Positions 18,268 to 37,568 of a DNA stretch of 64,000 nucleotides are shown in pieces. Each line of letters begins with the position of its first letter. Within the stretch, counting starts at the first letter, position 1. Where the stretch lies: NCBI GenBank assembly GCA_963666485.2, contig CAXXUO010000008.1, positions 112,132-176,131 on the forward strand, read 5' to 3'. Position numbers and translations under genes: made by a program. This DNA comes from Syntrophorhabdaceae bacterium. GTDB lineage: Bacteria > Desulfobacterota > Syntrophorhabdia > Syntrophorhabdales > Syntrophorhabdaceae. Below the pieces are notes generated by a model. That model ran no database searches. It had not been told where the DNA came from and worked only from the letters and a program-made list of their open reading frames with translations.

Positions 18268-20553
18268 ATGCAGTTTGACGTTATCCTCGATTTTCCCGAC
18301 GGACATATTGAAGAAGCAATATTGGCCCGGCCCTTCAATCCCGAAGACAGGGCCGCACATGTTCTGTCCGGCGACGGGGACGGGACAAAGGTGATCCCGC
18401 TTTCCGAACTGTGCTGCGTCCTGATGCAGAAAAATGGTTTTTCGGTACCGGGAGCTGAACATTCGCTCGAAGTCATCACAGTCACGTCCGACAAGCATTA
18501 TCACGTGGCAATCCCGAACGGGCAGCAGGTCAAAGCCGGGTTTTACGGCGTAGCGAATGAGACGGACAGCCCTTACAACCTCATCTTCTTTACCTACTCC
18601 GGGGTAAGCTCCCGGGAAGATCTTGCCCCCATCGGGAAAATGCTCGAAGAGAATAACTTCGTTACATCTTTTGAAATAGAAAAGGTACTGGAAGAACAAA
18701 AGGCCCTCAGGCAGAAGAAGCTGGGGGCGATCATTGCGGAAGAGCAAGGCGTTCCGCAGAGGAATATTGAGAATGCGATAGATACCGCCTACCGGGAAGG
18801 CAGGATCTCCGAGAGCATGAAGATCGGGGACATTCTTGTAGAAGCCGGTCTCGTAACGAAAGATCAAGTGGAGACCGCCTTCGCCAGCCAGGTGAAAGGC
18901 AGGAAAAAGAGGATTGGCGATCTCCTGGTCGAAAAAGGCCTTATAACAGAGGAGCAGCTTGTAAGGACCCTGGCCGTCAAGTTCCACATCCCCTTTGTCG
19001 ATCTTGAAAAGATCACCCCTTCACAGCCGGCGCTCGATCTGCTGCCGGCAGACATGGTCCATAAGCTGAGGATATTTCCCGTCGAAGATAACGGCGAGAG
19101 GATAACGATCGCGACGTCGGAACCGACCGACCTCACGGTCTATGACACCCTGCGCTTCTACTTCCACGGAAAAAGATACGTGGACCTTGTCGTTGCCGTG
19201 CCCCGGCAGATATCGGCGGCGATCCTGAAACATTACCAGAAGGACGCATACGTTATTGAGGATATCATCAGCGATATGACCGAGACGGTCCTTTACGATG
19301 ACAGCCCGGCAAAAGAGGCAGGCACCATCTCGGATTCCGACTCCCAGGTCGTAGCGCTTGTAAACAGGATACTGATCGACGGTCACGGCAAAGACGCGTC
19401 CGATATACATTTCGAGCCCGGAGGCCGGGGCCAGCCCGTCGAAGTGCGCTATCGGATCGACGGAACATGCCGGCTGGTCCATAAGATCCCCCGCTCACAC
19501 AAGAATGCCATAATCTCCCGGATAAAGATCATGGCCAACCTGGACTTCTCCGAGAAGCGCAAGCCCCAGAGCGGGAAAATAGTTTTATGGAACGCCGGAC
19601 GACAGATCGAGTACCGGGTCGAGACCACCCCGACAATTGGAGGGAACGAGGATGCCGTGCTGAGGATCCTGCCGCATTCAGACCCCCTGCCCCTTTCCAG
19701 GATGGATTTCTCCGCATCAAATCTCGAGATCATGAAGGGAATGCTTTCCCAGCCGTACGGCCTTATTCTGTGCGTGGGGCCGACGGGCTCGGGTAAGACG
19801 ACCATGCTTCACGGCGCTTTGAAACATCTCAATAAGCCCGAGGTGAAGATCTGGACGATCGAGGACCCCGTTGAGATCACACAAAAAGGCCTTCGACAGG
19901 TGCAAGCCGCCCCGAAGATCGGCTTGACCTTCAGCGAAGCCCTGCGATCATTCCTCAGGTCCGATCCCGATATTATCATGGTCGGTGAAATGCGCGACCC
20001 CGAAACGGCAAAGACGGCCATCGACGCCTCCCTGACGGGCCATCTCGTGTTGAGCACCCTTCATACGAACAGCGCCCCTGAAACGCTGGTCCGTCTCGTT
20101 CAAATGGGACTCGACCCTGTAAATTTTGCCGATTCCATTCTTGGAGTGCTTGCACAACGTCTTGCCCGGCGCGTTTGTAACAAATGTGGTACGTCATATC
20201 ACCCGGACAGGTCAGAATACGACAGGCTGGTAGACTTATGCGGAAAGGCCGGTTTCGAACAACACATCAATGTCCCGTACTCACCGGCCCTGAGCTTCAG
20301 AAAGGCCGTCGGCTGCGAAGCCTGCAGCGGGACAGGCTACAAGGGACGCATCGCCGTTCATGAATTGCTCGAAGGAACCACGCAGATCAAGGACCTCATA
20401 CGAAGGAACGCGGGCCTCGATGAGCTGAAAGCCCTGGCCATAAAACAGGGAATGACCACCCTTTTAATTGACGGCGTCCAAAAGGTCATCAACGGGTCTA
20501 CTGACCTGCCTGAGATCATGCGGGTATGCCGTTACGAAAGGACCGGGAACTAG
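18268..20553 (+). CDS. PilB/GspE-family secretion ATPase with repeated MshEN-like N-terminal motifs
   Basis: ASDIHFEP, GPTGSGKTT, TIEDPVE, LRSDPD..MVGEMRD, HLVLSTLHTN, CxxC pairs; repeated (K/R)(I/L)G.ILV..G motifs. Confidence 0.92.
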   Translation: MQFDVILDFPDGHIEEAILARPFNPEDRAAHVLSGDGDGTKVIPLSELCCVLMQKNGFSVPGAEHSLEVITVTSDKHYHVAIPNGQQVKAGFYGVANETDSPYNLIFFTYSGVSSREDLAPIGKMLEENNFVTSFEIEKVLEEQKALRQKKLGAIIAEEQGVPQRNIENAIDTAYREGRISESMKIGDILVEAGLVTKDQVETAFASQVKGRKKRIGDLLVEKGLITEEQLVRTLAVKFHIPFVDLEKITPSQPALDLLPADMVHKLRIFPVEDNGERITIATSEPTDLTVYDTLRFYFHGKRYVDLVVAVPRQISAAILKHYQKDAYVIEDIISDMTETVLYDDSPAKEAGTISDSDSQVVALVNRILIDGHGKDASDIHFEPGGRGQPVEVRYRIDGTCRLVHKIPRSHKNAIISRIKIMANLDFSEKRKPQSGKIVLWNAGRQIEYRVETTPTIGGNEDAVLRILPHSDPLPLSRMDFSASNLEIMKGMLSQPYGLILCVGPTGSGKTTMLHGALKHLNKPEVKIWTIEDPVEITQKGLRQVQAAPKIGLTFSEALRSFLRSDPDIIMVGEMRDPETAKTAIDASLTGHLVLSTLHTNSAPETLVRLVQMGLDPVNFADSILGVLAQRLARRVCNKCGTSYHPDRSEYDRLVDLCGKAGFEQHINVPYSPALSFRKAVGCEACSGTGYKGRIAVHELLEGTTQIKDLIRRNAGLDELKALAIKQGMTTLLIDGVQKVINGSTDLPEIMRVCRYERTGN

Positions 20554-21089: not shown

Positions 21090-23072
21090 TTAAATATTGA
21101 CCCTGATCGGCAGAATAACCGTCGGGATGCCTTCCCATTGAAGCCGTCTCTGGAGTGCATTGGCCGTCTCATTGTGGAGGACCCTCTGGAACGGGTTCTC
21201 CTTCTTGAAGATCAGCTTGCCCGTGAACACGGTCGATCGCGGGAATTCTTTCACCGTCTTTTCGACAAGTTCCGTGACGGAATCGATCACATCCGTCGCT
21301 ACCTCCGTCCGGTAATCGGCAGGGAACCCGTGGGCCCTGGTGACCTTGATATATTTCTCGAGGTCCTTCTTTACCGATGCCTGCAGGGCCTTGATCTCGG
21401 CAAGCCCCTTGAAAGACCCCGAATCCACCTCGGCCACGGAGATGAAAATGAAGTTCTTATAGATGCCCGGGAAATGCTGAACGATGGAAAGCAGTGTGTG
21501 GAGCCCAAACCCGTTGAAACTGCTGACGAGCAGTATCGCGGTCATGTCTTTGGGATTCACCGGGTCGTTGTTGAAGGCCCCGACAGCCGGGATATCGGAC
21601 AGGATGTTTTCCAGGTGCCGTACGCTGTCCCGGACCTTTGCGTAATGCCTGCGGATGAGATAGCACAGCGCCATAACCGCAGATGTAATGACTATCGTGA
21701 CCCAACCCCCTTCGCCGAACTTCTCGAATACTGTCACACACAGGATGGTGAGGCAGAGGATAAGCCCGATCACGTGGATAACGAGATGCTGCCTCCACCG
21801 GGCATCCTTCTCCTTGTTCTTCAGGAAGAACCGGATCATGCCGAATTGTGACAGCGAGAACGTCACGAAAACATTGATCGAGTACATAACCACGAGGGCA
21901 GTGATCGAACCTTTCGTGTATATGAGAAGGGCGATGGCCGCTGCACCCATCAGGATGACGCCGTTCTGCATGGTAAGCCGCTCGGAGAGGGACGCGAATT
22001 TGCGGGGGAACCACGAATCGATCGCCATGTTCGACATAACCCGGGGACCGTCGATGAAACCTGTCTGCGCCCCCACGATCAGGAGTGCCCCTTCCGACAG
22101 TATTGTGACGAGGGCGATCACCCCGCCCAAGGGCCAGCCCGAGAAAACCGCCCCGGCCAGTATGGCGTTGAGCGTCTGTCCTTCTGCCGGCCTGATCCTG
22201 AAAAGAAGGTAACAGACAAGGAGCCCGCCGGCCGTGATGGCAAGCGACGACGCCATGTATACCATGGTCCGTTTACCGGTGTGCACCCGTGGCTCCCGCA
22301 TGATCTGCATCCCGTTCGAGACTGCCTCGATCCCCGTGTATGTTCCGGCACCCATGGAGAACGCCCGCAGGAAGATGGCGAGGACCCCGATGAACCCTAT
22401 AGTCCTGAGGTCGGAACCAAGGCTGGTGTTGATGTCGTGCAAAACCGGTTTTACCTGCCCGACGTGAGTGAATATCCCGTAACCGATGAGAAGGGCATGC
22501 GTTGCAACGAATATTATGAAGATAGGGGCGAGAAAAACGACAGATTCCTTGACGCCCCTCAAGTTCAGGACGACAAGCACGACGATCAGGAACGCTACGA
22601 AGGCCAGCTTGTACTTCTGGAACGAAAGAGGGAGGAAACTGAACAACGCGTCGCCGCATGACACGAGCGAGACCGCGATGGTGAGCATGTAGTCGACGAG
22701 AAGAGCGCACCCCGAAACGACACCGGCCGACTTGCTGATCGTGTGCGTGGAAACGATATACCCGCCGCCCCCGTGGGGGAAATGCTCGATGATCCTCGAA
22801 TACGCGTAGGAAATGATGATGACCGTGAAGGCCGTCGCCACCGCCAGGAATACTGCCAGGTACGTGTGCTGGCCGAGCGTCCGGAACGCTTCCTCCGGGC
22901 CGTAGGATGAAGATGAAAGACCGTCCGCGCCGAGACCGATCCATGCGAGGATCGGTATCAGGGAAAGTTTATGGAATATAGAGGGTTCCTTGATGTCCCG
23001 CGGGGAGCCTATGATCGTGCGCTTTGTCTTTTCGAGTATGCTCTCTGGTCTTTCGGGGAAATCTTCCTGCAT
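21090..23072 (-). CDS. APC-superfamily permease, KimA/YdaO-like K+ transporter
   Basis: ADGLSSSSYGPEE, GGGGY, LLVDYML, NLRGVKES, TGIEAVSNG; C-terminal LHNETA cytosolic domain; kdp context. Confidence 0.85.
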   Translation of the reverse strand: MQEDFPERPESILEKTKRTIIGSPRDIKEPSIFHKLSLIPILAWIGLGADGLSSSSYGPEEAFRTLGQHTYLAVFLAVATAFTVIIISYAYSRIIEHFPHGGGGYIVSTHTISKSAGVVSGCALLVDYMLTIAVSLVSCGDALFSFLPLSFQKYKLAFVAFLIVVLVVLNLRGVKESVVFLAPIFIIFVATHALLIGYGIFTHVGQVKPVLHDINTSLGSDLRTIGFIGVLAIFLRAFSMGAGTYTGIEAVSNGMQIMREPRVHTGKRTMVYMASSLAITAGGLLVCYLLFRIRPAEGQTLNAILAGAVFSGWPLGGVIALVTILSEGALLIVGAQTGFIDGPRVMSNMAIDSWFPRKFASLSERLTMQNGVILMGAAAIALLIYTKGSITALVVMYSINVFVTFSLSQFGMIRFFLKNKEKDARWRQHLVIHVIGLILCLTILCVTVFEKFGEGGWVTIVITSAVMALCYLIRRHYAKVRDSVRHLENILSDIPAVGAFNNDPVNPKDMTAILLVSSFNGFGLHTLLSIVQHFPGIYKNFIFISVAEVDSGSFKGLAEIKALQASVKKDLEKYIKVTRAHGFPADYRTEVATDVIDSVTELVEKTVKEFPRSTVFTGKLIFKKENPFQRVLHNETANALQRRLQWEGIPTVILPIRVNI

Positions 23073-23076
23073 GGGT

Positions 23077-23550
23077 TCAAGCTCCTACCACAAGCACCGA
23101 GCTATGGGACCCTTTCCTCACTTTTGCCGTAATGCTCCGAAATAGAGTGAATAGAGAATACCCTTCCCTGCGCCTGGACATGATAATGAGGTCCGGCCCG
23201 CTTTCCGCTTCGGCGTTCAGGATCGCTTCGTGGACCTTTCCTTTCTTTACGCTCTGTACTATCTCGACATCCCGCGCCCCGGGGATGCGGGCAACCTGCT
23301 CCTGCATCATTCTCCGTTCGCTCGTCCCGTCACCGAACCGCAGGACATGGAGAAGTTCGATCGACGCGTTCTGCTGTTTCGCCAGATCGATCGCCAACTG
23401 CAGCGCAGCATCCGAGTATTCCGAGAAATTCGTCGGCACCAGTATCCTGTTTATACCCTTTCCATTGGTACCGGCAAAGGGCGACACTGCCTCCAGACCG
23501 AAACGGGCTGTAACACTGTCGAAGCCGTTCACTGTCATCCCGGAGCTCAT
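23077..23550 (-). CDS. Universal stress protein (USP)
   Basis: RILVPTNFSEYSDAAL...LLHV...DLIIM...SITAKV...SVLVV. Confidence 0.85.
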   Translation of the reverse strand: MSSGMTVNGFDSVTARFGLEAVSPFAGTNGKGINRILVPTNFSEYSDAALQLAIDLAKQQNASIELLHVLRFGDGTSERRMMQEQVARIPGARDVEIVQSVKKGKVHEAILNAEAESGPDLIIMSRRREGYSLFTLFRSITAKVRKGSHSSVLVVGA

Positions 23551-23569
23551 AATCTTTTGCCTCACTATG

Positions 23570-23634
23570 AATGTAGGCTTTCGGGCATAAATTGGGCGTT
23601 AAAAGATCCATAGATCATATAAAAAAAATGTAAA
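23570..23634 (-). promoter_or_regulatory. Putative KdpE-dependent promoter of usp-kimA
   Basis: Minus strand TTTACA-N5-TTTATA, N13, TTTTAA-N7-TTTATG, N10, TACATT; same layout as 33300-33365. Confidence 0.7.
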
Positions 23635-23680
23635 GATGCTTTGTGATAATGGAAAGGCTTTGTCCGGGCAGCGGCAGGCC

Positions 23681-25351
23681 CTACGTGGTTTCCCGGTGCG
23701 GCCCGCTCCACAGGGCCAGGGCATCATGTATGTCGTCCGCTGTAAAAGCGCCGTCCATTGCCTTGAGAAATGTCCGGTCCTGAAAAACGCGGCTTACCTC
23801 CGCGAGGATCTCTATCTGGACCTCCGGCCTTGCAGCGGGGGTGAGCGAAAGCACTATATAGCCTGCAGGCCGGCTGTCTTCCCCGGTGACCCCTCCACGG
23901 ACGACCCCCAGGGCTGCGCCCGGCGCACGAAGGTTTTCGAGCCGTGCGTGGGGAATGGCGAGGCCTTCATTGAGGAAGGTAGACCCTTCCGACTCGCGCG
24001 CCATTATCGCCTGCAACGCAGACGCCTCACTGCAGCCCGGAAGGTCCCTGCATGCCATGTGGACAAGTACCCGGATGGCTTCAACTTTTGAGACAGGGTC
24101 ATCCCAGAACACGACGTTGCGTCCGATCAGATCGTTTATCGCCACCTTGCGCGCCCTGGGCCCGGCCGCCTCTGTCGGCGCCTCTTCCCCAACTATTTCA
24201 ACCGGTGTCCTCATCGCGGGAACGGACGCTGTATCCACCACCACGACTGCCACATTATTCGCTTTGTCGATCAGGCGATGTACCAGGCTCTTTCCGCCCG
24301 CTACCCGCCTCCAGAGAGACCGTCTTGCGGGGGAACCCACCACAATATGCCCGACACGGTACTCCTTTGCAAAACGGAGTATGGTGTCGGCCACATCTTC
24401 ACCTTTATATGTGAAGACCGTCGCCCCCAACTGCTTCGCGATGGTGAGGGTGTTTGAGATAAGACGCTGGGTCAACGGGTCGACCGCGGTTGCCGCCTCT
24501 TCCGACGTTTGCACGTATACCGCGTACCAGTTCCTGTTAAGCCGCCCGGCAAGGCGGGAGCCGTACCTGAGGAGCATTTCGCTGTTGGGCCCCCGCGAGC
24601 TCAGGCACACCATCACCTGGTCGGGGGTGGGTGCGATCTCTTCATCCAGGGCCTCCCGCCGCCTCAGGTCGATCTGTGACGCCAGTTCCCTCAAGGTCAT
24701 CTCCCGGAGCTGTTCCAGGTTCGACAGGGTGAAAAAATTTGAAAGAGCCGTTTTGACACGCTCTTCAGGATAGATCTTCCCGTCTTCGAGACGCTGACGG
24801 AGGTCCTCCTCCGAAACGTCGACGTTGATGATCTCGTCGGCCCCGGCCAGGATATTGTCCGGCAGACGCTCGCGCACGGCGACCCCAAGACCCCGCTCCA
24901 CCGTGTTGTAAAGGCTTTCGAGGTGCTGGATGTTGACCGTGGTGATCACGTGGATGCCGGCGGCGAGAATGTCGTCTACATCCTGGTAGCGCTTGGGGTT
25001 CGAGGTCCCCGGAACGTTGGTATGGGCAAGCTCGTCGACAAGGGCGACCTCCGGCTTGCGGGCAATGAGCGCATTAAGATCCATCTCCCCGACAACAATG
25101 CCGTGGTATTCATACTCAAGCCTCGGAACGACCTCGAGCCCTTCCATGAGGCGCGCCGTATCCGGCCGCCCGTGCGTCTCGACGAGCCCGATGACCACGT
25201 CGATCCCTTCCTCTTTGAGCCTGTGGCCCTCGAGGAGCATCTGGTAGGTCTTGCCCACGCCGGCGGCATACCCGAGATAGACCTTGAGCCTGCCGCGCCG
25301 CGACCGCTGGATCAACCTTAGGAAATCGTCCGCCCTGTCAGCCCGTTCCAT
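23681..25351 (-). CDS. Kinase-less KdpD N-terminal protein: KdpD domain + USP + PTS EIIA-type domain
   Basis: GRLKVYLGYAAGVGKTY, VDELAHTN, NIQHLESL; USP VMVCLSS; EIIA ARESEGSTFLNEGLAIPHAR; no TM segments or kinase core. Confidence 0.9.
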   Translation of the reverse strand: MERADRADDFLRLIQRSRRGRLKVYLGYAAGVGKTYQMLLEGHRLKEEGIDVVIGLVETHGRPDTARLMEGLEVVPRLEYEYHGIVVGEMDLNALIARKPEVALVDELAHTNVPGTSNPKRYQDVDDILAAGIHVITTVNIQHLESLYNTVERGLGVAVRERLPDNILAGADEIINVDVSEEDLRQRLEDGKIYPEERVKTALSNFFTLSNLEQLREMTLRELASQIDLRRREALDEEIAPTPDQVMVCLSSRGPNSEMLLRYGSRLAGRLNRNWYAVYVQTSEEAATAVDPLTQRLISNTLTIAKQLGATVFTYKGEDVADTILRFAKEYRVGHIVVGSPARRSLWRRVAGGKSLVHRLIDKANNVAVVVVDTASVPAMRTPVEIVGEEAPTEAAGPRARKVAINDLIGRNVVFWDDPVSKVEAIRVLVHMACRDLPGCSEASALQAIMARESEGSTFLNEGLAIPHARLENLRAPGAALGVVRGGVTGEDSRPAGYIVLSLTPAARPEVQIEILAEVSRVFQDRTFLKAMDGAFTADDIHDALALWSGPHRETT

Positions 25352-25354
25352 GTT

Positions 25355-25936
25355 CTAGATCCTCCCGTCCAGGGCACAATTCAGGGTAAGGACGTTGACG
25401 CGGGGTTCCCCGAATATCCCGAAGGTCCGTTCCTCGGTGTGTTGCCCGATCTTCTGAAGGACGGCCCTTTCAGTCATGCCCCGTTCGCGCGCGACCCTTT
25501 TCGCCTGGATGAGCGCATTTTTAAGGCTGATATGGGGATCGAGCCCGCTTGCCGATGCCGTGACGGCGTCCGCCGGAATGGGAACATCCGGCGCAAGGCC
25601 GTTCTCCTTCCGGTATTCGTCAACGCGCGCCTTCACTGTCTCGCTCAAGGTCCGCGACAGGGGGCCGAGATTGCTTCCCCCCGATGCCTGCGCATCGTAA
25701 CCTTTTCCCGCTGCTGACGGGCGCGGGTGAAAGTACTGCGGGCCCGCGAAACCCTGCGCCAGCAGCGTCGATCCGATCACCCTGCCCTCCGCCGTCAGGA
25801 GCGAACCGTTCGCTTTCCCGTTGAAGAACATCTGCCCGACGGCCCACGTGATCAGTGGGTATACCCCGCACAGCAGGATGCCCAGCACAAGAATGCCGAT
25901 GAGGCTGATCCTGATCTCCCGGAACAATGTGTTCAT
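25355..25936 (-). CDS. kdpC: K+-transporting ATPase subunit C
   Basis: ANGSL, YFHPRPSA, SGGSNLGP, DAVTASASGLDPHIS. Confidence 0.96.
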   Translation of the reverse strand: MNTLFREIRISLIGILVLGILLCGVYPLITWAVGQMFFNGKANGSLLTAEGRVIGSTLLAQGFAGPQYFHPRPSAAGKGYDAQASGGSNLGPLSRTLSETVKARVDEYRKENGLAPDVPIPADAVTASASGLDPHISLKNALIQAKRVARERGMTERAVLQKIGQHTEERTFGIFGEPRVNVLTLNCALDGRI

Positions 25937-25952
25937 GACGCTTCTCTCCCGA

Positions 25953-27971
25953 TCATATCAGGCCGATGGCCGTAATGATCATATCTATCGCCTTGATCCC
26001 GATGAACGGGACGACAAGGCCGCCTGCACCGTAGATGAGAAGATTTCTCTTCAGGAGCGCTGACGCTCCGAGCGGCCGGAATGTGACCCCTTTCAGGGCG
26101 AGGGGGATGAGGAACACTATGATAAGTGCATTGAAGATCACCGCGCTTAAGATCGCACTCTGCGGCGAAGAGAGCATCATAATGTTGAGCGGAGCGATAA
26201 CGGGGAAAATGCCGACCAGCATGGCGGGGATGATCGCAAAATACTTTGCTACATCGTTCGCTATGGAAAATGTCGTGAGCGCCCCGCGCGTGATGAGCAT
26301 CTGCTTGCCTATCTCCACGACCTCGATCAGCTTCGTGGGGTTCGAGTCAAGATCGACCATGTTCCCTGCTTCCTTTGCCGCCTGGGTCCCCGTGTTCATC
26401 GCGACACCGACGTCCGCCTGTGCAAGGCCGGGGGCGTCGTTCGTCCCGTCACCGGTCATGGCGACGAGGTGGCCGGCCGCCTGCTCGGTGCGGATAAGGC
26501 GCAATTTATCCTCCGGCCTCGCCTCCGCCACAAACTCGTCGACGCCGGCCTCTTTCGCTATTGCAGCGGCCGTGAGCCGGTTGTCCCCGGTTATCATCAC
26601 GGTCTTTATGCCCATTGCCCGAAACCGCTCGAACCGGTCTTTCAACCCGCCCTTCACGATATCCTTGAGCTCGATCGTACCGAGCACCCGTTCATTGTCC
26701 GCTACGACGAGAGGGGTGCCCCCCGAATCCGCTATTTCATCGATGGCCGCATTGACCTCATCGGGGAAGCTGCCGCCGACAAATGTCCGAACCGCCTCGG
26801 AGGCGCCCTTTCGTATCCGCCTGCTATCGAGGTCTATGCCGCTCATACGGGTCTGCGCGGTGAACGGTATGAAATCGGCGTGCGGCATCTCGCCGATGTT
26901 CCGCCCCCTCAAGCCGTACTGCTTGGCGAGGACGACGATGCTCCGCCCTTCCGGGGTCTCGTCGGCAAGCGAGCTGAGTTGGGCTCCGTCTGCCAGTGCC
27001 TCGGGACTCACCCCGGGTGCCGGGATAAACCTCGTTGCCTGCCTGTCCCCGAGCGTGATCGTTCCCGTCTTGTCGAGAAGCAGGACATCGACATCGCCCG
27101 CCGCTTCGACCGCGCGGCCGCTCATTGCAAGAACGTTCTTCTGCACCATGCGGTCTATCCCCGCTATGCCGATAGCGCTCAACAGTCCGCCGATCGTCGT
27201 GGGAATGAGGCACACGAGCAGGGCGACAAGCACCGTAATGGGAAAGGACACGCCGGAATACATGCCAAAGAACCTAAGCGAAATGATAACGACGAGGAAG
27301 ATGACGGTAAGCGCGGACAGAAGCAGGGTCAGGGCGATCTCGTTCGGGGTCTTCTGCCTTTTTGCCCCTTCCACGAGCCCGATCATGCGGTCAAGAAAAC
27401 TCTGCCCCTTTTCCGCCGTCACCCGGACAACGATGCGGTCCGACAGGACCCGCGTGCCGCCCGTCACCGCACTGCGGTCTCCGCCCGCCTCCCGGATGAC
27501 CGGCGCTGATTCCCCCGTGATCGCCGATTCGTCGACCGTCGCAGCCCCTTCGATGATCTCTCCGTCCGCTGGTATGACCTCGCCGGCCGAGACCACGAAC
27601 AGTTCCCCCTTTTCGAGCCGGTCGGCGGGTACCTGCGTGACCGAACCGTCCCTCAGGCGGTTTGCGATGCTCTGCGTGCGCGTCCTGCGCAGGGCCATCG
27701 CCTGTGCCTTCCCCCGCCCCTCCGCCATCGCCTCCGCGAAGTTTGCGAAGAACACCGTGAACCACAGCCAGACCGTTATCTGGAGATCAAAAAAGAGGGA
27801 TGCGCTCCCGGAGCGGTAGAAGAGCATGATTGTTGTGATCGCCGCCGCCGTTTCGGTAACGAAAATGACCGGGTTTTTCATGAGGGACACGGGGTTCAGC
27901 TTCTTAAAAGAAGCAACGACGGCACCCGCTATGATGTCGCGATCGAAAAGGGAATGTCGCTTCGCAGCCAT
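25953..27971 (-). CDS. kdpB: K+-transporting P-type ATPase subunit B
   Basis: [26 protein letters not shown]. Confidence 0.97.
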
Positions 27972-27983
27972 TCTCGTCCTCGC

Positions 27984-29756
27984 CTAGTACAATGCACGGG
28001 AGGCATTCATGAGAAAATGCTCCACTATGGGGCCGAGTGCCAGGGCGGGAAGAAATGTGAGGGCCCCCACGATCAGGACCGTTCCGGCAACCAGTGCGAC
28101 AAATATGGGGCCGTAGGCCGGAAAACTGCCGGAGCTTGCGGGCACCGGCCTCTTTGCTGCCAGGCTCCCCGACAGTGCCATGACAGGGACTATCACCAGG
28201 AACCGGCCGAAAAGCATTGCTATGCCCAGCATAACGTTGTACCAGGGGGTGTTGCCGCCGAGGCCCGCGAACGCGCTCCCGTTGTTGCCCACGGCGGACG
28301 AAAAGGCATAGAGTATCTCGGTCAGGCCATGCGGCCCGGCATTGCCGAGCGCCCCCGTTCCCCATTTCGTCACCGCGCCGAATGCGGCAAATCCAAGGAT
28401 GGAGAAGATGGATACAAGAACGGCAAGCGCGCACATCTTCACATCATACGCCTCGATCTTCTTGCCGCAGTATTCCGGGGTCCTCCCCACCATGAGGCCG
28501 GCCAGAAAGATCGCGAGAATGACAAAGACGAGCATGCCGTAAAGGCCCGACCCCACGCCCCCGAAGACGACCTCGCCGAGTTGTATATTGACGAGGGTGA
28601 TCAGCCCGCCGAGGGGTGTGAACGAATCATGCATCGCGTTCACCGCCCCGCATGACGCATCCGTTGTGACCGTCGCAAAAAGCGACGAACCAAAGACGCC
28701 GAAGCGCACTTCTTTGCCCTCCATATTCCCCGGGGCGGCAGCCACACCGATATCGTGCATGCGCGGATTGCCGGCGACCTCCGCGAACCAGCATACACAG
28801 ATCGCGGCGAGGAACAGCACGAGCATCGTCATGAAGATGGCCCAGCCGTGTTTACGGTTCTTTATCGTGAGCCCAAGGTAATAGGTAAGGCCGGCGGGGA
28901 TCAGGAATATAGAGAAGATCTGCAGAAAATTGCTGAGCGGCGTCGGGTTCTCATACGGGTGGGCCGCATTGGCATTCGTAAAGCCGCCGCCGTTCGTCCC
29001 CAGCATTTTTATCGCAGCCTGTGACGCCATCGGTCCCTGCACGATCGTTTGGCCCGTCACCATTTCCGTTTTAGCCGGGCCGGCACCATCCGGTGCCTGA
29101 ACTGTGACAATTGCAGGTTCGACGAGTTGTGCCGACGCGTAGGGCCTGAAATTCTGGACCACCCCCTGCGACACCAGAAACACGGCGAACACGAGGGACA
29201 ATGGCAGGAGGAGATACAGGTTGACCCTGACCATGTCGACCCAGAAATTCCCGACGGTCCCCGACCTCTCGCGGGCAATTCCCCGCACAAGCGCCGCAGA
29301 CACCGCTATGCCGCACGCTGCCGAGATAAAATTGTGGAACGTCAGGGCGACCATCTGGGAAAAATAGGACATCGTCGACTCACCCGGGTAGTTCTGCCAG
29401 TTGGTGTTCGTCGTAAAGCTCGCCGCCGTGTTGAAGGAGAGATCGGGATTGACGGGACCCAATCCCTGCGGGTTCAGGGGGAGAAGGTGCTGGAGGCGCA
29501 GGATGAAGTAGCTGAAGAGCATGGACGCGCAACTGAACACGAGGAGAGAGAAGAGGTAGCTCCTCCAGGTCTGCTCCTGCCGCCCCGCGAGACCGAACAG
29601 ACGGTAGAACAGCCGCTCGAGAGGGGAGATGAGCGGGTCAAGGAACGTCTGTGCATCAGGGTCGAGCACCCGCGAAAGATAGATGCCCATCGGCTTCGCC
29701 GCCGCGATAATAAGGCCCGTAAAAATTGCGAGCTGCAACCATCCGTACATATCCAT
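27984..29756 (-). CDS. kdpA: K+-transporting ATPase subunit A
   Basis: TNTNWQNY, LGTNGGGF, SCGAVN, NNGSAF filter motifs. Confidence 0.97.
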   Translation of the reverse strand: MDMYGWLQLAIFTGLIIAAAKPMGIYLSRVLDPDAQTFLDPLISPLERLFYRLFGLAGRQEQTWRSYLFSLLVFSCASMLFSYFILRLQHLLPLNPQGLGPVNPDLSFNTAASFTTNTNWQNYPGESTMSYFSQMVALTFHNFISAACGIAVSAALVRGIARERSGTVGNFWVDMVRVNLYLLLPLSLVFAVFLVSQGVVQNFRPYASAQLVEPAIVTVQAPDGAGPAKTEMVTGQTIVQGPMASQAAIKMLGTNGGGFTNANAAHPYENPTPLSNFLQIFSIFLIPAGLTYYLGLTIKNRKHGWAIFMTMLVLFLAAICVCWFAEVAGNPRMHDIGVAAAPGNMEGKEVRFGVFGSSLFATVTTDASCGAVNAMHDSFTPLGGLITLVNIQLGEVVFGGVGSGLYGMLVFVILAIFLAGLMVGRTPEYCGKKIEAYDVKMCALAVLVSIFSILGFAAFGAVTKWGTGALGNAGPHGLTEILYAFSSAVGNNGSAFAGLGGNTPWYNVMLGIAMLFGRFLVIVPVMALSGSLAAKRPVPASSGSFPAYGPIFVALVAGTVLIVGALTFLPALALGPIVEHFLMNASRALY

Positions 29757-29765
29757 GGCTATCTC

Positions 29766-29846
29766 CTAGAACTTCTCCGGCCTGATGACCGATATCATCA
29801 GGTATATGATGAGAAGGATGCCCACGATGAGGACAACGATATCCAT
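29766..29846 (-). CDS. kdpF: K+-transporting ATPase subunit F (26 aa)
   Basis: MDIVVLIVGILLIIYLMISVIRPEKF; YL.....RPEKF signature; GGAGG SD. Confidence 0.92.
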   Translation of the reverse strand: MDIVVLIVGILLIIYLMISVIRPEKF

Positions 29847-29847
29847 T

Positions 29848-29931
29848 TCATATCCTCCCGCAGGCCGCACCGAAAAGATGACAGGCGGCAAAAAACAAGA
29901 CGGCAACCGCAACAAACATAACATCGCTCAT
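29848..29931 (-). CDS. Small hydrophobic peptide upstream of kdpF (27 aa)
   Basis: MSDVMFVAVAVLFFAACHLFGAACGRI; ATGA overlap with the upstream kinase stop; ends 1 nt before kdpF. Confidence 0.75.
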   Translation of the reverse strand: MSDVMFVAVAVLFFAACHLFGAACGRI

Positions 29932-31769
29932 GATGCATCCTCCGTGTGCCCGATATCTGCTGCGGGCAGGAAGAACGTGAATGTCGCACCTTCACCCTCC
30001 CTGCTCGTGACGGTGATCTCGCCATTATGTGCGTTGATGATCTCTTTGACGATCGAAAGGCCGAGGCCGGCACCACGGTGTGGATCATCCCCGGGGAGTT
30101 CCACGAACCTTTCAAAGATAATGCCCGTATATTCACGCGGAATGCCCTTTCCCGTATCTGCAACGGAAAAAGCGACGCGGGCATCCGCTCTTTTGGCCGA
30201 AACCGTGACGCTGCCGCCGGGCGGCGTATATCTCAACGCGTTTGAAAGCAGGTTTGAGAACACGTGCCCTATCTGCATTGCATCGGCGCTCACATCGGGG
30301 AGCTCAGGTTCAATATCGGCTGAAAGCATGATGCCCTTCTCCTGGCTCAAGCGGCGAAAGGGCTCGATGCCGTTCAATACCAGGGTCGCGGGGGACACGG
30401 TCCGGATGTTCATCTTCACTTTGCCCGACTCTATCCTGCTGATATCGAGAAGGTCATCGATAATAGTGCGGAGCCTTTCGCTTTCTTCCCGTGCGGCTAC
30501 CAGCAATTCACCCTGTTTCGCGGTCAAGAGTCCCGGTTTCTCGGTCAGCAGGAGGTGGATGGCCATCTCCACGGCCGTAAGCGGTGTTTTCAGTTGATGT
30601 GATACGGTGGAAATGACGCTGCGCTTCATTTCGTCGTGCTGCCGGAGCAGGGTGACGTCCTCGAGAAGGAGCACCACCCCCGTCATTCGTTCCTTCTCCT
30701 CGAATATCGGTATGCCCCGCGGGCGGAAATATCGCTCCGCGCCGCCCACGAACTTTTGCATGACGTCCCTGTCGCCCGGCTCCACTTTTCGTCCCTTTTT
30801 CATGACCTCCCGATAGGTGCCTTCGACACGGCGATCGGGAAGCATGCCTATCGGGGTGTTGGGTTTGAGACCGAATATGTCCTTTGCCGGGCCGGTTGCA
30901 ACCTCCACCATGCCGTCGAGGCCTATCACGGCGACAGCATCCGAAAGGCTGTTAAAAGCGGCCTGCGTGGCCTTCTGGTACCTGTACGCCTTCGTCCTGT
31001 CGCTCCGCCGGAACTCGCGCACGGCGGCCGCCATCCGGTTGAACGCTTCGGAGAGCGCCCCTATTTCGTCACGGGACGTGACGGGCACGACAAGCTCGAG
31101 GTTCCCCTTCCTTATCTCGTCCGCCGAGCGCGTGAGACGGGAGATGGGCTGCACGATCCATTTACCGGCAAAGACCATGAAACCGAGGCCGATAACGATC
31201 CCGGCAATGACGAGAACATACATATGCCGGCGGGATGTTGCGGCGAGCCTTTTTGCCCGTTCATCGGAATCCACTATGTTCTTCTGATTCATCAGGAGGA
31301 TCGCATTGGCGATGTTTTTCATCTCGTAGAATTTTGGCAGCAACTTATTGAAATAGATTTTGTGCCTGCCGCCGAACGATGCGTCCCGCTTCCGGAGAAA
31401 TTCCTCGAGGAGCGACCTGTACTGCCCAAACGTGTCACGAAGCCGCCAGGCCAGGTCCTTTTCACCCGGCAATGTGATATTGTCGAGCTCGACCTGGAGG
31501 GCCTGTGCAAACCGCGGCACATTGGCTTCGATAAGGTCCCTGCCCTTTTCTTTCTCACCGAGCAGGACGAACAGGATCCCGCTGTCTATGCGCTCGGCCG
31601 ATTCTTTCATATCTTCGCACGCGATAACGCTCCGGTAGTTTTCCCTGAGAATGACATCGATCGACCCCCCCAACTGGGACAGGCGGATGATGCTCTGAGT
31701 ACCGACAATAAGGATGATGACGAGAAGGCCCCCGAAGCCGAAGAAGAGTTTATGCCTGAGCTGAAACAT
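29928..31769 (-). CDS. Sensor histidine kinase (periplasmic four-helix bundle, HAMP, PAS, HisKA, HATPase)
   Basis: Two TMs, DEIGALSEAFNRM, SHQLKTPLT, NLLSNA, DTGKGI, GAGLGL. Confidence 0.93.
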   Translation of the reverse strand: MFQLRHKLFFGFGGLLVIILIVGTQSIIRLSQLGGSIDVILRENYRSVIACEDMKESAERIDSGILFVLLGEKEKGRDLIEANVPRFAQALQVELDNITLPGEKDLAWRLRDTFGQYRSLLEEFLRKRDASFGGRHKIYFNKLLPKFYEMKNIANAILLMNQKNIVDSDERAKRLAATSRRHMYVLVIAGIVIGLGFMVFAGKWIVQPISRLTRSADEIRKGNLELVVPVTSRDEIGALSEAFNRMAAAVREFRRSDRTKAYRYQKATQAAFNSLSDAVAVIGLDGMVEVATGPAKDIFGLKPNTPIGMLPDRRVEGTYREVMKKGRKVEPGDRDVMQKFVGGAERYFRPRGIPIFEEKERMTGVVLLLEDVTLLRQHDEMKRSVISTVSHQLKTPLTAVEMAIHLLLTEKPGLLTAKQGELLVAAREESERLRTIIDDLLDISRIESGKVKMNIRTVSPATLVLNGIEPFRRLSQEKGIMLSADIEPELPDVSADAMQIGHVFSNLLSNALRYTPPGGSVTVSAKRADARVAFSVADTGKGIPREYTGIIFERFVELPGDDPHRGAGLGLSIVKEIINAHNGEITVTSREGEGATFTFFLPAADIGHTEDAS

Positions 31770-31798
31770 ACAATGTCCCTGCATTATTCATATTCATC

Positions 31799-31815
31799 AG
31801 CATACGGCGTGCCAA
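31799..31815 (-). promoter_or_regulatory. Sigma54 promoter of the kinase-kdpFABC operon
   Basis: Minus strand TTGGCAC-GCCGT-ATGCT. Confidence 0.8.
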
Positions 31816-31878
31816 GGGGAGGCTTCGTCTAACCTACCGGGATCATTGTGTATTAAGAAACAAGAATGGTCAGGGGCC

Positions 31879-31923
31879 TTGCGCTTCGCAAAGACGGGCC
31901 GGAACGGGCATTGCATGGTGCAA
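31879..31923. promoter_or_regulatory. Paired enhancer palindromes TTGC-N5-GCAA
   Basis: TTGCGcttCGCAA (31879-31891) and TTGCAtggTGCAA (31911-31923), 32 bp apart, upstream of the sigma54 site. Confidence 0.7.
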
Positions 31924-31934
31924 GGTTGCGGGGA

Positions 31935-33278
31935 TCACATGTTGTATTGTTTACGCCGCCGCCACAATGTCGCCTGGTCAATGCCAAGGACCTCGGCGGC
32001 CTCCTGCAGCGACCGCGAGTTCGCCAGGACGCGCCGGATATGCTCCTCCTCGATCCGGGCAAGCGACATCGGATCGCCCGCCTTCGGGACCGACAGCGCC
32101 GGTTTTATCTTCTCCGGCAGATACTCGATCCCTATCCGGTCGCTTTTGCAAAGGATAACCGCCCGCTCTATTGCATTCCTGAGCTCCCGGACATTCCCCG
32201 GCCACTCGTACTGCAGCAGGAAGTTCCAGGCCTCATCGGTAAAACCCAAAAAGCGTCGGTGGCTGTTTGAACTGAAAAAGGCAAGGAGGCGCTCGGCCAG
32301 CAGCCTGATGTCCGCCGGCCGCGCACGCAGGGGCGGTACCTCGACCTGAATGACGTTGAGGCGGTACAGCAGCTCTTCCCGGAAAAGCCCTTTCTTTACG
32401 GCCCCTTCCAGGTCTATATTCGTTGCAGCGAGGATACGCACATTGGCCCTGTGGGTTGCAGAATCACCGACCATCTCGTATTCCCGGTCCTGGAGAAAGC
32501 GCAGCAGTTTCGGCTGGAGCGTCACGGGCAGGTCGCCGATCTCGTCGAGAAGAAGCGTACCGCCTTCGCAGGCGGCGATCTTCCCGCGATTGTCCTTGAC
32601 CGCCCCCGTGAAAGCGCCCCTGACATGCCCGAACAGTTCACTGTCGAGAAGTTCCGGGGAAAGCGACGGGCAGGACACAACGCCGAACGGCATAGTGCGC
32701 CGCGGGCTCAACTGATGGATATACCTCGCCAGTTCCGTCTTTCCGGTGCCGCTTTCCCCGGTAAAGAGCACCGTAGCGCCGGAGGGGGCGACCTGCCGGG
32801 CGAGGTACACGACCCGCTGCATCCCGGGATCCTCCGTAGAGAAATCGACCTCGGGATGCGACCTGCCAAGGTCGAGGGCAAGGGCCTCGATCCTCTCCTC
32901 CAGGGACCTTATCTCCATTACCTTGCTGAGCGCGATCCCGATCTGAGCCGGGGTGAAAGGTTTCGGCACATAGTCCGTGGCGCCGCGACGCATTGCCTCG
33001 ACCGCGGTCTCGATGGATGCGTAGGCCGTTATCACGATGATCTTGAGCCACGGGGAATCCTTCAACAACGCCGGTATCAGGTCGAGCCCGTTCGTTATCC
33101 CGAGCCTCAGGTCGACGAAGGCAAGGTCGAACGCCTGTTCGCGTGCCTTCCGTGAAGCATCTTCGGCATTGCTGACCGCGGTGACCTGGCAGCCTTCCGA
33201 TTCAAGGTACGACCCAAGGACCTTCCTGATATTTACTTCGTCATCGACGACGAGAATACGAAATGAGCTGACGTCCAA
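31935..33278 (-). CDS. NtrC-family sigma54-dependent response regulator
   Basis: REC domain, GESGTGKT, GAFTGA, LLDEIG, WPGNVREL, Fis-type HTH. Confidence 0.95.
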   Translation of the reverse strand: MDVSSFRILVVDDEVNIRKVLGSYLESEGCQVTAVSNAEDASRKAREQAFDLAFVDLRLGITNGLDLIPALLKDSPWLKIIVITAYASIETAVEAMRRGATDYVPKPFTPAQIGIALSKVMEIRSLEERIEALALDLGRSHPEVDFSTEDPGMQRVVYLARQVAPSGATVLFTGESGTGKTELARYIHQLSPRRTMPFGVVSCPSLSPELLDSELFGHVRGAFTGAVKDNRGKIAACEGGTLLLDEIGDLPVTLQPKLLRFLQDREYEMVGDSATHRANVRILAATNIDLEGAVKKGLFREELLYRLNVIQVEVPPLRARPADIRLLAERLLAFFSSNSHRRFLGFTDEAWNFLLQYEWPGNVRELRNAIERAVILCKSDRIGIEYLPEKIKPALSVPKAGDPMSLARIEEEHIRRVLANSRSLQEAAEVLGIDQATLWRRRKQYNM

Positions 33279-33299
33279 GAAAAATCACTCCTCTTAGAA

Positions 33300-33365
33300 A
33301 ATATAAGTCGCCCGATATAAATAGAGTATTAAAAGTTGCGCGGGAAGCTGTAAAGAATATATAAA
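33300..33365 (-). promoter_or_regulatory. Putative KdpE-dependent promoter of the sigma54 activator gene
   Basis: Minus strand TTTATA-N5-TTTACA, N14, TTTTAA-N7-TTTATA, N10, TATATT. Confidence 0.7.
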
Positions 33366-33388
33366 AAAGCCGCGTGACCGGGCCCGTG

Positions 33389-34081
33389 TCAGTCCGCGGC
33401 AACAAGCCGGTACCCGACCCCCGGCTCGGTGATGATGTACGCGGGCTGCGACGGATCTTCCTCGATCTTGCGCCGCAGCTGCCCTATGTAGACACGCAGG
33501 TACTGGGAGTGCTCCTGGTAGTTGGACCCCCAGATCTCGAGAAGCAGCTGCCGGTGGGTAACCACCCTGCCCGCCTTCTGGGCGAGGTATTTCAGGACCT
33601 CGTATTCGGTCGGGGTCAGTTTTACTTCCTCTCCCCGGACCGTCACGCTCCTGCGGGCAAGGTCAAGGGAAAGCTCCCCGAAGCTGAGGACAGGCTCATC
33701 CCCCGAACGGGCTATGCGGCGCAGGGCGGCCCGTAAACGGGCGAGCAATTCGGCCATGCTGAAGGGCTTGGTGACATAATCGTCGGCCCCGGCGTCCAGG
33801 GCCTTGATCTTGTCGTCCTCGTGCTCCCGAACGGACAGGACAATGACGGGCACCTGCGTCCATTCGCGCAGCCGCCCGATGACCTCGATCCCGTCCATAT
33901 CGGGCAGCCCCAGGTCCAGGATGACAACGTCAGGGTGGAATATCGACGTCTGGCTCAGGCCTTCGTGGCCGGAAGCCGCCTCGGCGATGTCATACCCGTA
34001 GCCTTCCAAAGCGGCCTTTAACATTCTCCGTATCTGCTTTTCATCGTCCACAACAAGGATCCGTGCTCCGTCCGCCGACAT
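33389..34081 (-). CDS. kdpE: OmpR-family response regulator KdpE
   Basis: LDLGLPDMDG, VVTHRQLLLEIWG, YLRVYIGQLRRKIE, TEPGVGYR. Confidence 0.93.
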   Translation of the reverse strand: MSADGARILVVDDEKQIRRMLKAALEGYGYDIAEAASGHEGLSQTSIFHPDVVILDLGLPDMDGIEVIGRLREWTQVPVIVLSVREHEDDKIKALDAGADDYVTKPFSMAELLARLRAALRRIARSGDEPVLSFGELSLDLARRSVTVRGEEVKLTPTEYEVLKYLAQKAGRVVTHRQLLLEIWGSNYQEHSQYLRVYIGQLRRKIEEDPSQPAYIITEPGVGYRLVAAD

Positions 34082-34093
34082 TATCGTTCCTTT

Positions 34094-35665
34094 TTAAGAA
34101 TTTTCCTTTTCCGGCAAATCCCCGGCAACGGCCAGGGAAAAGCTGAAGCTGTTGCCATGCTCCGGTGAGGGGTCTATCCATATGCGGCCTCCGTGGGCCT
34201 CTATGATGCCCTTGCAGATGAACAGGCCGAGCCCCGTACCGCTGACATGCTGCGATGATCTTTGCCGGTAGAATTTATCGAAGATATGTTCCTGCTCGCC
34301 TCCCGGGATGGAAGGCCCCGCGTTTGACACGGTCACAACCAGGTCCTTTTCGCGAACGGCGACCGAGATCGAGACGGGAACGTCCGGCGGGGAATACTTT
34401 GCGGCATTTTCAAGGAGATTTATCAGGACCTGCTCTATGAGGATAAAATCGGCCATGACGGATGGAACGTCCGGCGGTATGTCAACTTTGACCGGGTGGC
34501 CCGTCAACGTGTCCCGCATCTCCCTGAGCACCACGCCGATAATGTCCTGGATATCACACGGTCTCATGTTCAGTTTCAGGGTGCCGCTTTCCAGGCGCAC
34601 CATGTCGAGAAGGTTCTCCACAAAACGGTTCATGCGGCGGGCCTCTTCCCGTATCGTGCCGAGGAGCACCTCCCGCGTGGCGGGGGTATATATGTCCTTT
34701 TCCTCGATAAGGCTGGTCACGGCCCCCATGATCGACGCGAGCGGCGTCCTGAAATCATGGGAGATGGAGTTAAGAAGGGTCCTGTGCAGCTTTTCGGACT
34801 CCGCCAACCATTTGGCCTGCTCGGCCTCTTTTGCGAGCTCGAGCCGGACTATTATCACAGCGGCGAGGTTGCTCAAGGTCTCGATGAGCTGGGTCTGTTC
34901 CGGGGAAAGGGACAACGCCTCATTCCCGGGCCTTATGCCAAGAACGGCCAGCGTTCTTTCTTCAGCCTTCACGGGAAAGAAGAACAGCGACTTCTCACCC
35001 TCGAAGATCCCGAGACCTCTGCCGGCAGGGCGGCCCTGCTCGAACACCTGGCGGGCGACCGCATATTCCTTCTTGTCGAGGAATGTGTCGGCCGCTTCGG
35101 AGGCCACCTGCTCCATGGTATTGGTGTCCCGGTTATGCACGAGGACTATCGCCTTCCCGTCAACGATCCCGGCAACCTTATCGACAAATGTTTTCAGGAC
35201 CTGGTCAAGCTCGGTCGTCGCGGCTATCTCGCGGCTGAGGTCGTATAATGCGAGCGTTCTTTCTTCGCGTTCCGTGGCTTTACGCGTCTCGTCCCTCAGT
35301 TTGGTTGCCAGCGTGCTCGTAACGATTGCCACGAGGAGAAAGATAACGAGGATGAAGACATGCTGGATGTTGGCAACCTCGAAGGTGAATATTGGCGGCA
35401 CAAAGAAAAAATTAAACGCAAGAACGCCGAGGAATGACCCGAGGAACGCCGGGCCGCGTCCCCAGCGGACGGCGCTTATCAGGACGGGCAGGAGATAAAT
35501 AAGGGCAAGGTTGGTGAGATCGAGCCGGGGCGTTAATATCTCTCCCAGGAGAGTGACTGCGAGGATCGACAGCACGGCCCAGGCATAATTCCTGGCCGGA
35601 CTGCCGAGGAAAATGCGTTCCCGCCCGCGTCCCTGCCTGTATGGATCGTTCGTGCCTATATTCAT
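34094..35665 (-). CDS. kdpD: KdpD-type kinase, C-terminal half only (4 TM, GAF, HisKA, HATPase)
   Basis: AFNFFFVPPIFTF TM motif; LLNSISHDFRTPL; lacks the N-terminal KdpD and USP domains. Confidence 0.88.
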   Translation of the reverse strand: MNIGTNDPYRQGRGRERIFLGSPARNYAWAVLSILAVTLLGEILTPRLDLTNLALIYLLPVLISAVRWGRGPAFLGSFLGVLAFNFFFVPPIFTFEVANIQHVFILVIFLLVAIVTSTLATKLRDETRKATEREERTLALYDLSREIAATTELDQVLKTFVDKVAGIVDGKAIVLVHNRDTNTMEQVASEAADTFLDKKEYAVARQVFEQGRPAGRGLGIFEGEKSLFFFPVKAEERTLAVLGIRPGNEALSLSPEQTQLIETLSNLAAVIIVRLELAKEAEQAKWLAESEKLHRTLLNSISHDFRTPLASIMGAVTSLIEEKDIYTPATREVLLGTIREEARRMNRFVENLLDMVRLESGTLKLNMRPCDIQDIIGVVLREMRDTLTGHPVKVDIPPDVPSVMADFILIEQVLINLLENAAKYSPPDVPVSISVAVREKDLVVTVSNAGPSIPGGEQEHIFDKFYRQRSSQHVSGTGLGLFICKGIIEAHGGRIWIDPSPEHGNSFSFSLAVAGDLPEKENS

Positions 35666-36754: not shown

Positions 36755-36813
36755 ACTGTCAGGACCTCCCGGCACGCGTGTTTCTTTGGTGCCCGGGGAC
36801 CCGGGGACCCGCC

Positions 36814-37431
36814 ATGAATGTCAGGACCATTGGCTCAAAGACGACCGTAACCATTATGCCCGGTGAGTATTACGTATCGAGGAAAGATGATATCGTGATC
36901 GGTACCATACTCGGTTCCTGCGTGTCGGCCTGCCTCTATGACCCTGTCAGCCGCATCGTAGGAATGAACCATTTTCTGCTGAGCGGCAGGCAAAACAACC
37001 CCGTGGACGGAGTATGGCAGTCCGAAGCGGGACGATACGGTGTCCATTCGATGGAGATCATTGTAAACGGCATGTTAAAGCTCGGTGCCAACAGGGGGAC
37101 TTTGCGCGCCAAGGCCTTCGGCGGGGCATCGGTCCTTCCGGTGACAAACCGGGCGAGCGCCTTCGCGAGTGTCGGCGAAATGAATGCGCGATTTGTCCTG
37201 CAATTCCTAAGGACTGAGGGTATACGGCTTATTTCTTCGGACCTCGGCGGCTGTGAAGGACGGGCGATACGCTTTCACTCCGATGATTTTTCAGTCTACC
37301 AGAGAAAGATAAAGCGGGTGGTCATGCCCGACCTTGCGACGCGCGAAGAACAATACTGGCGCAGGGAGGCCGAAAAACGCTACACCGAGCCGGAGATCTG
37401 GAATGTCAGAAAAGTAAGGAGTGAGGAGTGA
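36814..37431 (+). CDS. cheD: Chemoreceptor glutamine deamidase
   Basis: PGEYYV, TILGSCVSAC, GMNHFLL, AKAFGGA, DLGG. Confidence 0.93.
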   Translation: MNVRTIGSKTTVTIMPGEYYVSRKDDIVIGTILGSCVSACLYDPVSRIVGMNHFLLSGRQNNPVDGVWQSEAGRYGVHSMEIIVNGMLKLGANRGTLRAKAFGGASVLPVTNRASAFASVGEMNARFVLQFLRTEGIRLISSDLGGCEGRAIRFHSDDFSVYQRKIKRVVMPDLATREEQYWRREAEKRYTEPEIWNVRKVRSEE

Positions 37432-37531
37432 GGAAAAAGCGGTTCCACGTTCCACGTTCAAAAAAAATACATCCCGGGATCGGGTGTTTACCCGGCTATA
37501 ACCCCTTAACATTCCTTACTCTTTACTACTA
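37412..37531. repeat. Short inverted heptamer arrays (AGTRAGG vs CYTTACT) with internal (TTCCACG)2
   Basis: Visible directly downstream of cheD. Confidence 0.55.
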
Positions 37532-37568
37532 TTTTCTCTATGTCTGAGCAAAAACTATCCCAAAAATA

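Follow-up and report, generated by a model that had tools for sequence, protein, structure and literature searches.

The potassium uptake locus at positions 21090..35665 of a 64,000-nucleotide stretch of DNA from a Syntrophorhabdaceae bacterium (the window) carries a sigma-54 module enclosed by two KdpE-type promoter elements, as if this module had been inserted in a kdpDE-usp-kimA locus and flanked on both sides by copies of the KdpE promoter. All genes of the locus are on the minus strand, in the order kdpD C-terminal half, kdpE, a sigma-54 activator gene (the activator), a second sensor kinase gene (HK2), a 27-amino-acid (27-aa) open reading frame (ORF), kdpF, kdpA, kdpB and kdpC, followed by a gene for a fused KdpD-N/Usp/EIIA protein, a universal stress protein gene (usp) and a kimA-like gene. 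The gene order, the conservation of the motifs, their distribution over one clade, the deletions in sister genomes and the purifying selection were observed directly. We read the merged locus as a KdpE-led feed-forward loop rather than a strict AND gate, a reading that we give about an even chance of being correct. Each of the tiers is already known separately, and the new feature is the nesting of the sigma-54 tier under KdpE promoters. The elements concerned are the following.

33300..33365, minus strand: KdpE-type element 1, 5' of the activator (half-sites 33349-33365 and 33316-33332, -10-like hexamer 33300-33305)
23570..23634, minus strand: KdpE-type element 2, 5' of usp-kimA (half-sites 23618-23634 and 23586-23602, -10-like hexamer 23570-23575)
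31879..31923, no strand assigned: paired enhancer palindromes TTGCR-N3-YGCAA, 32 bp apart (31911-31923 and 31879-31891)
31799..31814, minus strand: sigma-54 -24/-12 promoter 5' of HK2

An earlier reading of the window (the original prediction) had placed KdpE-type boxes before the activator and before usp-kimA, and phylogenetic footprinting bore this out. The exact pair TTTAYA-N5-TTTAYA occurs five times in the 3.77 Mb genome that holds the window (G000), and two of these occurrences are 33349-33365 and 23618-23634. A two-half-site matrix on its own was rejected as non-discriminating, the window sites ranking only 9 and 13 among the top 15 in G000. The full element, as derived from 19 relatives' sites, consists of TTTAYR-N5-TTTAYR, 15 nt, a second half-site pair, approximately 10 nt and a -10-like hexamer, and because the sites had been chosen by the first pair only, the second pair and the hexamer constitute independent support. 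With a four-half-site matrix trained on 13 relatives (genomes outside the genus), elements 2 and 1 took ranks 1 and 2 in G000 (37.2 and 32.7 bits; next site 23.7), and the counterpart of element 1 in G011 scored 33.5 bits. Moreover, a strict four-half-site pattern had exactly two matches in G000 and none in a backward control; it matched 9 of 401 genomes of the phylum, including five outside the family, where it precedes kdpA or kdpD in two and has no kdp gene nearby in three. The element was detected in the fetched stretches of 30 of the 38 KdpE-bearing relatives (17 of 25 when held out), several of the misses having flanks of only 1.5 kb, and in none of 14 control genomes. Among the matches listed were 90 activator loci that have HK2 or a kdp gene as a neighbour and lack kdpE; the element was upstream of none of them (best 8.8). 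KdpE homologs were found in 28 of the 61 genomes searched, G000 included.

The element trails kdpDE regardless of the gene that comes next, be it kdpA (G026, G029, G031, G046, G049, G052, G057, G059), usp-kimA (G036, G037), kimA (G025), the activator (G011), HK2 (G014, G002) or, in some relatives, the gene of a kinase-less sensor described below. A KdpE box directly 5' of kdpFABC, present in many relatives, is not found in the window, and the alternative that KdpE acts from within the kinase gene gained no support, as nothing in HK2 or the kdp genes scored above 3.6 bits in the matrix scan. Neither was a box found in the 690 bp before kup. Elements 1 and 2 are predicted to be promoters used by phosphorylated KdpE (KdpE~P).

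The sigma-54 promoter and the paired enhancers that the original prediction had placed before HK2 are the sole such triple in G000. Both enhancers and the -24/-12 box are also kept in G011, and of 40 loci examined, with the window counted among them, 19 have at least one enhancer plus the box 5' of HK2; the loci without them include the three activator-less ones and others with a different gene order. The activator is predicted to bind these enhancers and to activate transcription from the promoter. As had been claimed, kdpF has no promoter space of its own, since the HK2 stop codon overlaps the start of the 27-aa ORF; a comparable small ORF precedes kdpF in six of six sigma-54-type loci examined. 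A simple pattern scan of the 166 bp that separate activator and HK2 found no intrinsic terminator, so that RNA started by KdpE may read into kdpFABC. A simple combined scan for sigma-70 promoters and terminators performed at chance level (7 versus 6.5 and 15 versus 14.6) and was set aside, and a hairpin with U-run 3' of kdpE was rejected as a terminator (z -1.16, not kept in G011).

Within the 69 family genomes searched, the sigma-54 block between two elements inside a kdpDE-usp-kimA locus was encountered only in G000, G011, G014 and G002, which form a single gyrA clade with a support of 100/100 (19 rows). According to quick or FastTree phylogenies, their kdpB and HK2 cluster with stand-alone sigma-54 modules, such as those of G021, G023, G024, G055 and others, and their kimA, like their kdpE, with the kdpDE-usp-kimA loci of G035, G036 and G037. 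G036 carries both modules on separate contigs and has no element 5' of its activator. We infer one merger of the two modules, in which the KdpE promoter would have been duplicated. Four runs of a single sample, which may be the source DNA, gave contigs that cover 29600-34200 unbroken and with zero differences; an assembly chimera was therefore rejected, and the locus is not an assembly artefact. No further merged loci were found among at least 160 activator loci from genomes and metagenomes, a listing that lacks the known 74-91% activator homologs, and a plasmid search returned only 39-40% paralogs.

Two of the four genomes have lost the middle tier. In G014 the element is joined straight to HK2, without activator, enhancers or sigma-54 box, and in G002 both copies retain a short, well preserved activator remnant of 24 codons and lack the enhancers and the -24/-12 box; no activator ortholog was found elsewhere in these genomes (best 39-41%). 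The element is the sole promoter-like feature left for kdpFABC in both. The differing end-points and the little-decayed remnant suggest that the losses are recent and took place separately or in steps. The HK2 tree splits G014 from G002, with joining them not rejected (approximately unbiased test, p-AU 0.13). The two copies of the collapsed locus in G002 (C6 and C22) differ by a synonymous divergence (dS) of 0.38 in kdpE versus 0.08 in the N-terminal part of HK2. HK2 itself is intact, with a ratio of nonsynonymous to synonymous rates (omega) of 0.10 between G014 and G002 despite the loss of its partner, which fits either a recent loss or a second role. The activator shows purifying selection between G000 and G011 (omega 0.11 at dS 0.43). 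For these two genomes, the block between the elements (23681-33278) has a dS of 0.45 (0.41-0.48) versus 0.91 (0.82-1.02) in the flanks and 0.88 in gyrA, which a later exchange of the block could explain.

The locus encodes the following products.

34094..35665, minus strand: KdpD C-terminal half, DUF4118-GAF-HisKA-HATPase, without N-terminal KdpD/Usp domains (Pfam; H-box with Asp after His)
33389..34081, minus strand: kdpE response regulator (best NCBIfam match KdpE; best PDB match E. coli KdpE, 4kny)
31935..33278, minus strand: activator, a sigma-54 enhancer-binding response regulator, REC-AAA+ GAFTGA-HTH, DVU3334/AlgB-like (Pfam, homologs)
29928..31769, minus strand: HK2, second sensor, transmembrane (TM)-four-helix bundle (4HB)-TM-HAMP-PAS-HisKA-HATPase, H-box His-Gln-x-x-Thr (Pfam, alignment)
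29846..29929, minus strand: 27-aa hydrophobic membrane ORF 5' of kdpF (no Pfam match)
29766..29846, minus strand: kdpF (PF09604)
27984..29756, minus strand: kdpA (TIGR00680)
25953..27971, minus strand: kdpB, with TGES and DKTGT motifs (TIGR01497)
25355..25936, minus strand: kdpC (TIGR00681)
23681..25351, minus strand: soluble KdpD-N/Usp/EIIA protein, EIIA being of the phosphotransferase system (PTS) (Pfam)
23077..23565, minus strand: universal stress protein, usp (PF00582)
21090..23072, minus strand: KimA-like K+ transporter (lone PDB match B. subtilis KimA, 6s3k, E 2e-61)

The kdpE product scored 273 with the KdpE model, below the curated cut-off of 325. Alignment to 4kny showed that it retains the equivalents of R193, R200 and T215, which in E. 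coli KdpE are reported to be required for DNA binding (PMC3264566). The locus thereby resembles the E. coli KdpD/KdpE-kdpFABC system as described there in its KdpE recognition residues and its TTTAYA-N5-TTTAYA half-sites, and differs from it in its split KdpD, in the four half-sites of the element and in the position of the element before the activator and usp-kimA rather than kdpF. The 34094-35665 product aligns to positions 403-883 of the 895 of the KdpD model, and a full-length single-chain KdpD is absent at the locus, being divided between 34094-35665 and 23681-25351. A 639-aa protein elsewhere in the genome (G000:C2:203000-205600, minus strand) has a KdpD-like DUF4118 membrane part (42% identical) and a different kinase end.

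Neither this split nor the KdpD-N/Usp/EIIA gene, which probably encodes a brake on the pump, was part of the original prediction. KdpD-N retains Walker A (G-X5-GKT) and Walker B (DE), has Tyr at the equivalent of W39, the Trp of the adenine-binding Trp/Arg pair, and KdpB retains the TGES target. Split or short KdpD is reported to act as an atypical serine kinase on KdpB, by which the pump is shut off at high K+ (Silberberg 2024, PMC11018627), and by analogy the KdpD-N/Usp/EIIA protein is probably a KdpB-inhibiting serine kinase that turns the pump off at high K+. As in the split systems of that report, the KdpD/Usp chain ends the kdp operon with the kinase chain elsewhere, Walker A/B and TGES are kept, and a diadenylate cyclase is present; unlike what it describes, the window has a fused PTS-EIIA, Tyr for W39 and two different membrane kinases per locus. 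EIIA-Ntr is reported to stimulate KdpD in E. coli (PMC5458449), and in the window an EIIA domain is fused to KdpD-N. KdpE-type relatives also contain KdpD-N proteins of approximately 680 aa that have their own transmembrane and GAF-like part, lack a kinase and lie beside a separate kinase half (L116:7641-9680, plus strand; loci L227-L243 and L245).

The residue after the phospho-His of HK2 is Gln and not acidic in the window and in eight relatives, and among 64 further HK2 homologs parsed it is Gln in 15 and Glu in 49; on these alignments, the Gln is a trait of an HK2 subgroup. HK2 retains the phospho-His, Thr/Asn at +4 and an intact ATP-binding domain. The four-helix-bundle sensor of the original prediction holds insofar as a single weak match, 4HB_MCP_1, was obtained below cut-off, and the HK2 start is probably 31769, judging from the alignment of relatives, rather than 31784. 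Active His-Gln kinases of the BceS type exist. In CrdS, a Glu-to-Gln change is reported to abolish kinase activity with phosphatase activity retained (PMC3510030), and the acidic-residue rule is reported to have exceptions (10.64898/2026.02.27.708494). The positive feedback of HK2 on its own operon that had been proposed is thus not supported as stated, as the Gln means that the autoregulatory loop may be negative. HK2 may still be active, since His-Gln HK2 occurs where no KdpD kinase was found, and in G021, G023, G024 and G055 no other kdp-linked kinase was found. The proposal that the His-Gln of HK2 leaves KdpD to phosphorylate the activator is weakened by His-Gln modules in genomes for which neither a KdpD kinase nor KdpE was found.

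A kinase-less 255-aa TM-4HB-TM homolog of the HK2 sensor module (E 8e-17; L117:6122-6886, minus strand; loci L385-L400) is present in 16 of 96 genomes of the order and absent from G000; 11 of the 16 have a kdp, kimA or module gene at a distance of at most 1.5 kb, and four lie directly 3' of a KdpE element. Its single-sequence fold had low confidence (predicted local distance difference test, pLDDT, 58). The cytoplasmic part of HK2, modelled in complex with KdpD-N/Usp, scored 0.28 versus a mark of 0.32, with no folded controls, a result that does not count as evidence; a weak search for natural KdpD-N/HAMP-kinase fusions covered the best 120 of 311 long homologs and found none. Activator-HK2 pairs also occur in Desulfobacteraceae, Verrucomicrobiota and others (L004, L007, L009), many without a kdp gene in the fetched DNA.

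Several systems resemble parts of this locus. In Desulfovibrio vulgaris, DVU3334 is reported to regulate the kdp operon, and the KdpD-N/Usp protein and the kinase are separate (Rajeev 2011, PMC3333781); DVU3334 is listed as a GAFTGA regulator of potassium uptake (Kazakov 2015, PMC4641369). The window shares with DVU3334-DVU3339.1 of strain Hildenborough, as reported, a GAFTGA sigma-54 response regulator linked to kdpFABC, the KdpD-N/Usp protein and histidine kinase on separate chains, enhancers of 5-3-5 palindromic geometry and a sigma-54 box approximately 45 bp 5' of the first gene, and in Syntrophobacter the DVU3334-type motif is likewise reported 5' of a kinase gene. Unlike DVU3334, which is described inside its own target operon, the window activator lies upstream, behind a KdpE-type promoter and beside kdpDE. 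The original prediction had regarded the wiring as undescribed: the sigma-54 tier is known from DVU3334 (PMC3333781), and the nesting was not found in the literature searched. Likewise, no description of KdpE control of a sigma-54 activator or of kimA was found in the literature, subscription papers not being covered. The likeness to DVU3334 and DVU3335 is one of domains, linkage to kdpFABC and motifs. Many close activator homologs bear the automatic JGI name AlgB, and the domain order of HK2 is one that we take to be KinB-like; unlike Pseudomonas AlgB/KinB, the linked target is kdp and not alginate, and HK2 has no KinB sensor Pfam match. The activator is 65% identical to that of Syntrophorhabdus aromaticivorans (L042).

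The 21090..23072 product is a KimA homolog by sequence, and its K+/H+ symport and c-di-AMP binding are putative. All eight K+-site residues of B. subtilis KimA (6S3K) have equivalents (D36, Y43, D117, T121, S125, T230, E233, Y377; numbering from 10.1101/2023.07.05.547876), and the C-terminal domain aligns poorly. B. subtilis kimA is reported to have a c-di-AMP riboswitch (10.1101/2023.07.05.547876), versus the KdpE-type promoter 5' of usp-kimA in the window. G000 encodes rpoN, diadenylate cyclase and kup, and a search of it for TrkH found none. Outside the locus, a RelE/ParE-like small ORF (17780-18082, by eye, within 17735-18094) lies just 5' of a PilB/GspE-like ATPase gene (18205-20553), and CheD-like, STAS-like and CheA-like ORFs (36778-40127, plus strand, by eye) form the beginning of a chemotaxis cluster that lies upstream of kdpD.

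Binding, transcription, read-through and phosphotransfer at the locus we infer as follows. At low K+ the membrane KdpD half would phosphorylate KdpE, as in E. coli, and KdpE~P would fire both elements, yielding Usp and KimA from element 2 and the activator from element 1, probably with reading on into HK2-kdpFABC for want of a terminator. The phosphorylated activator would then amplify pump expression from the sigma-54 promoter, so that KdpE supplies basal pump expression plus its amplifier, and KdpD-N, the last product of the operon, would turn the pump off via KdpB phosphorylation. The middle tier would be dispensable once KdpE lies upstream, and was deleted in sister species. The feed-forward loop is favoured because no intrinsic terminator was found between activator and HK2 and because the arrangement in G014 shows element 1 to be able to serve HK2-kdpFABC. 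Several observations weigh against it. The central spacer of element 1 is 16 nt versus 15 nt in 35 of 35 best-register sites of relatives, which may weaken the element; intact nesting is seen in two genomes only (G000, G011), of which G011 has its activator gene divided between two contigs; and G002 is 78% complete with many frameshifts. With its His-Gln motif, HK2 is also a doubtful phosphodonor for the activator, and read-through is argued from a missing simple terminator pattern, a scan blind to Rho-dependent termination and to any roadblock that bound activator or sigma-54 polymerase might form.

The original prediction held instead that KdpE makes only the activator and KimA, and that kdpFABC needs a second signal through HK2 with positive feedback. 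We consider such a strict cascade unlikely, though still to be reckoned with: the lack of a KdpE element within HK2 and the kdp genes, the intact enhancer pair, box and activator in G000 and G011, the presence of rpoN, and the genomes in which His-Gln HK2 is the sole kdp-linked kinase found, and may still phosphorylate the activator, speak for it, whereas the missing terminator, the behaviour reported for CrdS (PMC3510030) and the deletion of the tier do not. With two of the four genomes lacking the middle tier, an obligatory second-signal gate is argued against; the KimA-first order in time that accompanied it was not supported as stated. The deletions could also mean that the sigma-54 tier is a disappearing relic and that KdpE read-through does everything already, as the viable G014 design, the different end-points and the G002 remnant would allow. 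The selection on the activator, the retention of both enhancers and the box in G000 and G011, and the low dS of the inner block, as if exchanged and kept, make this rather improbable. Least of all do we expect the two modules to be mere neighbours, with element 1 a leftover, the activator constitutive (e.g., by kdpDE read-through) and the regulons parallel as in G036. The 16-nt spacer, confined to the element 1 of the window, and the absence of an element 5' of the activator in G036 and in other sigma-54 modules agree with that arrangement, but element 1 is still the second-best site of G000, its G011 counterpart has the regular 15-nt spacer, and in G014 and G002 no promoter-like element other than this one is left for kdpFABC.

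Besides the feed-forward loop, the series of genomes allows a more speculative, and on balance doubtful, proposal that an OmpR-family regulator took over a sigma-54 regulon step by step, in which case HK2 would be mainly a phosphatase or pump-coupled sensor rather than the kinase of the activator. The steps would be separate modules (G036), nesting (G000, G011), an activator remnant (G002) and clean deletion (G014). HK2 stays intact throughout, and its four-helix module would work with KdpFABC or KdpD-N, an idea that fits the placement of the kinase-less homolog at K+ transport and kdp-regulator genes as well as the conservation of HK2 between G014 and G002.

The weight of these findings is limited by the narrow distribution of the merged locus, with four genomes, two of them intact. 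Within that clade they offer a natural series for the replacement of one regulator family by another at a transporter operon, of which the intermediates can be cloned and compared. Moreover, they widen the predicted KdpE regulon to KimA and a sigma-54 activator, define, for this order, a KdpE promoter with four half-sites, and draw attention to a family of kdp-linked sensors that may not function as kinases.

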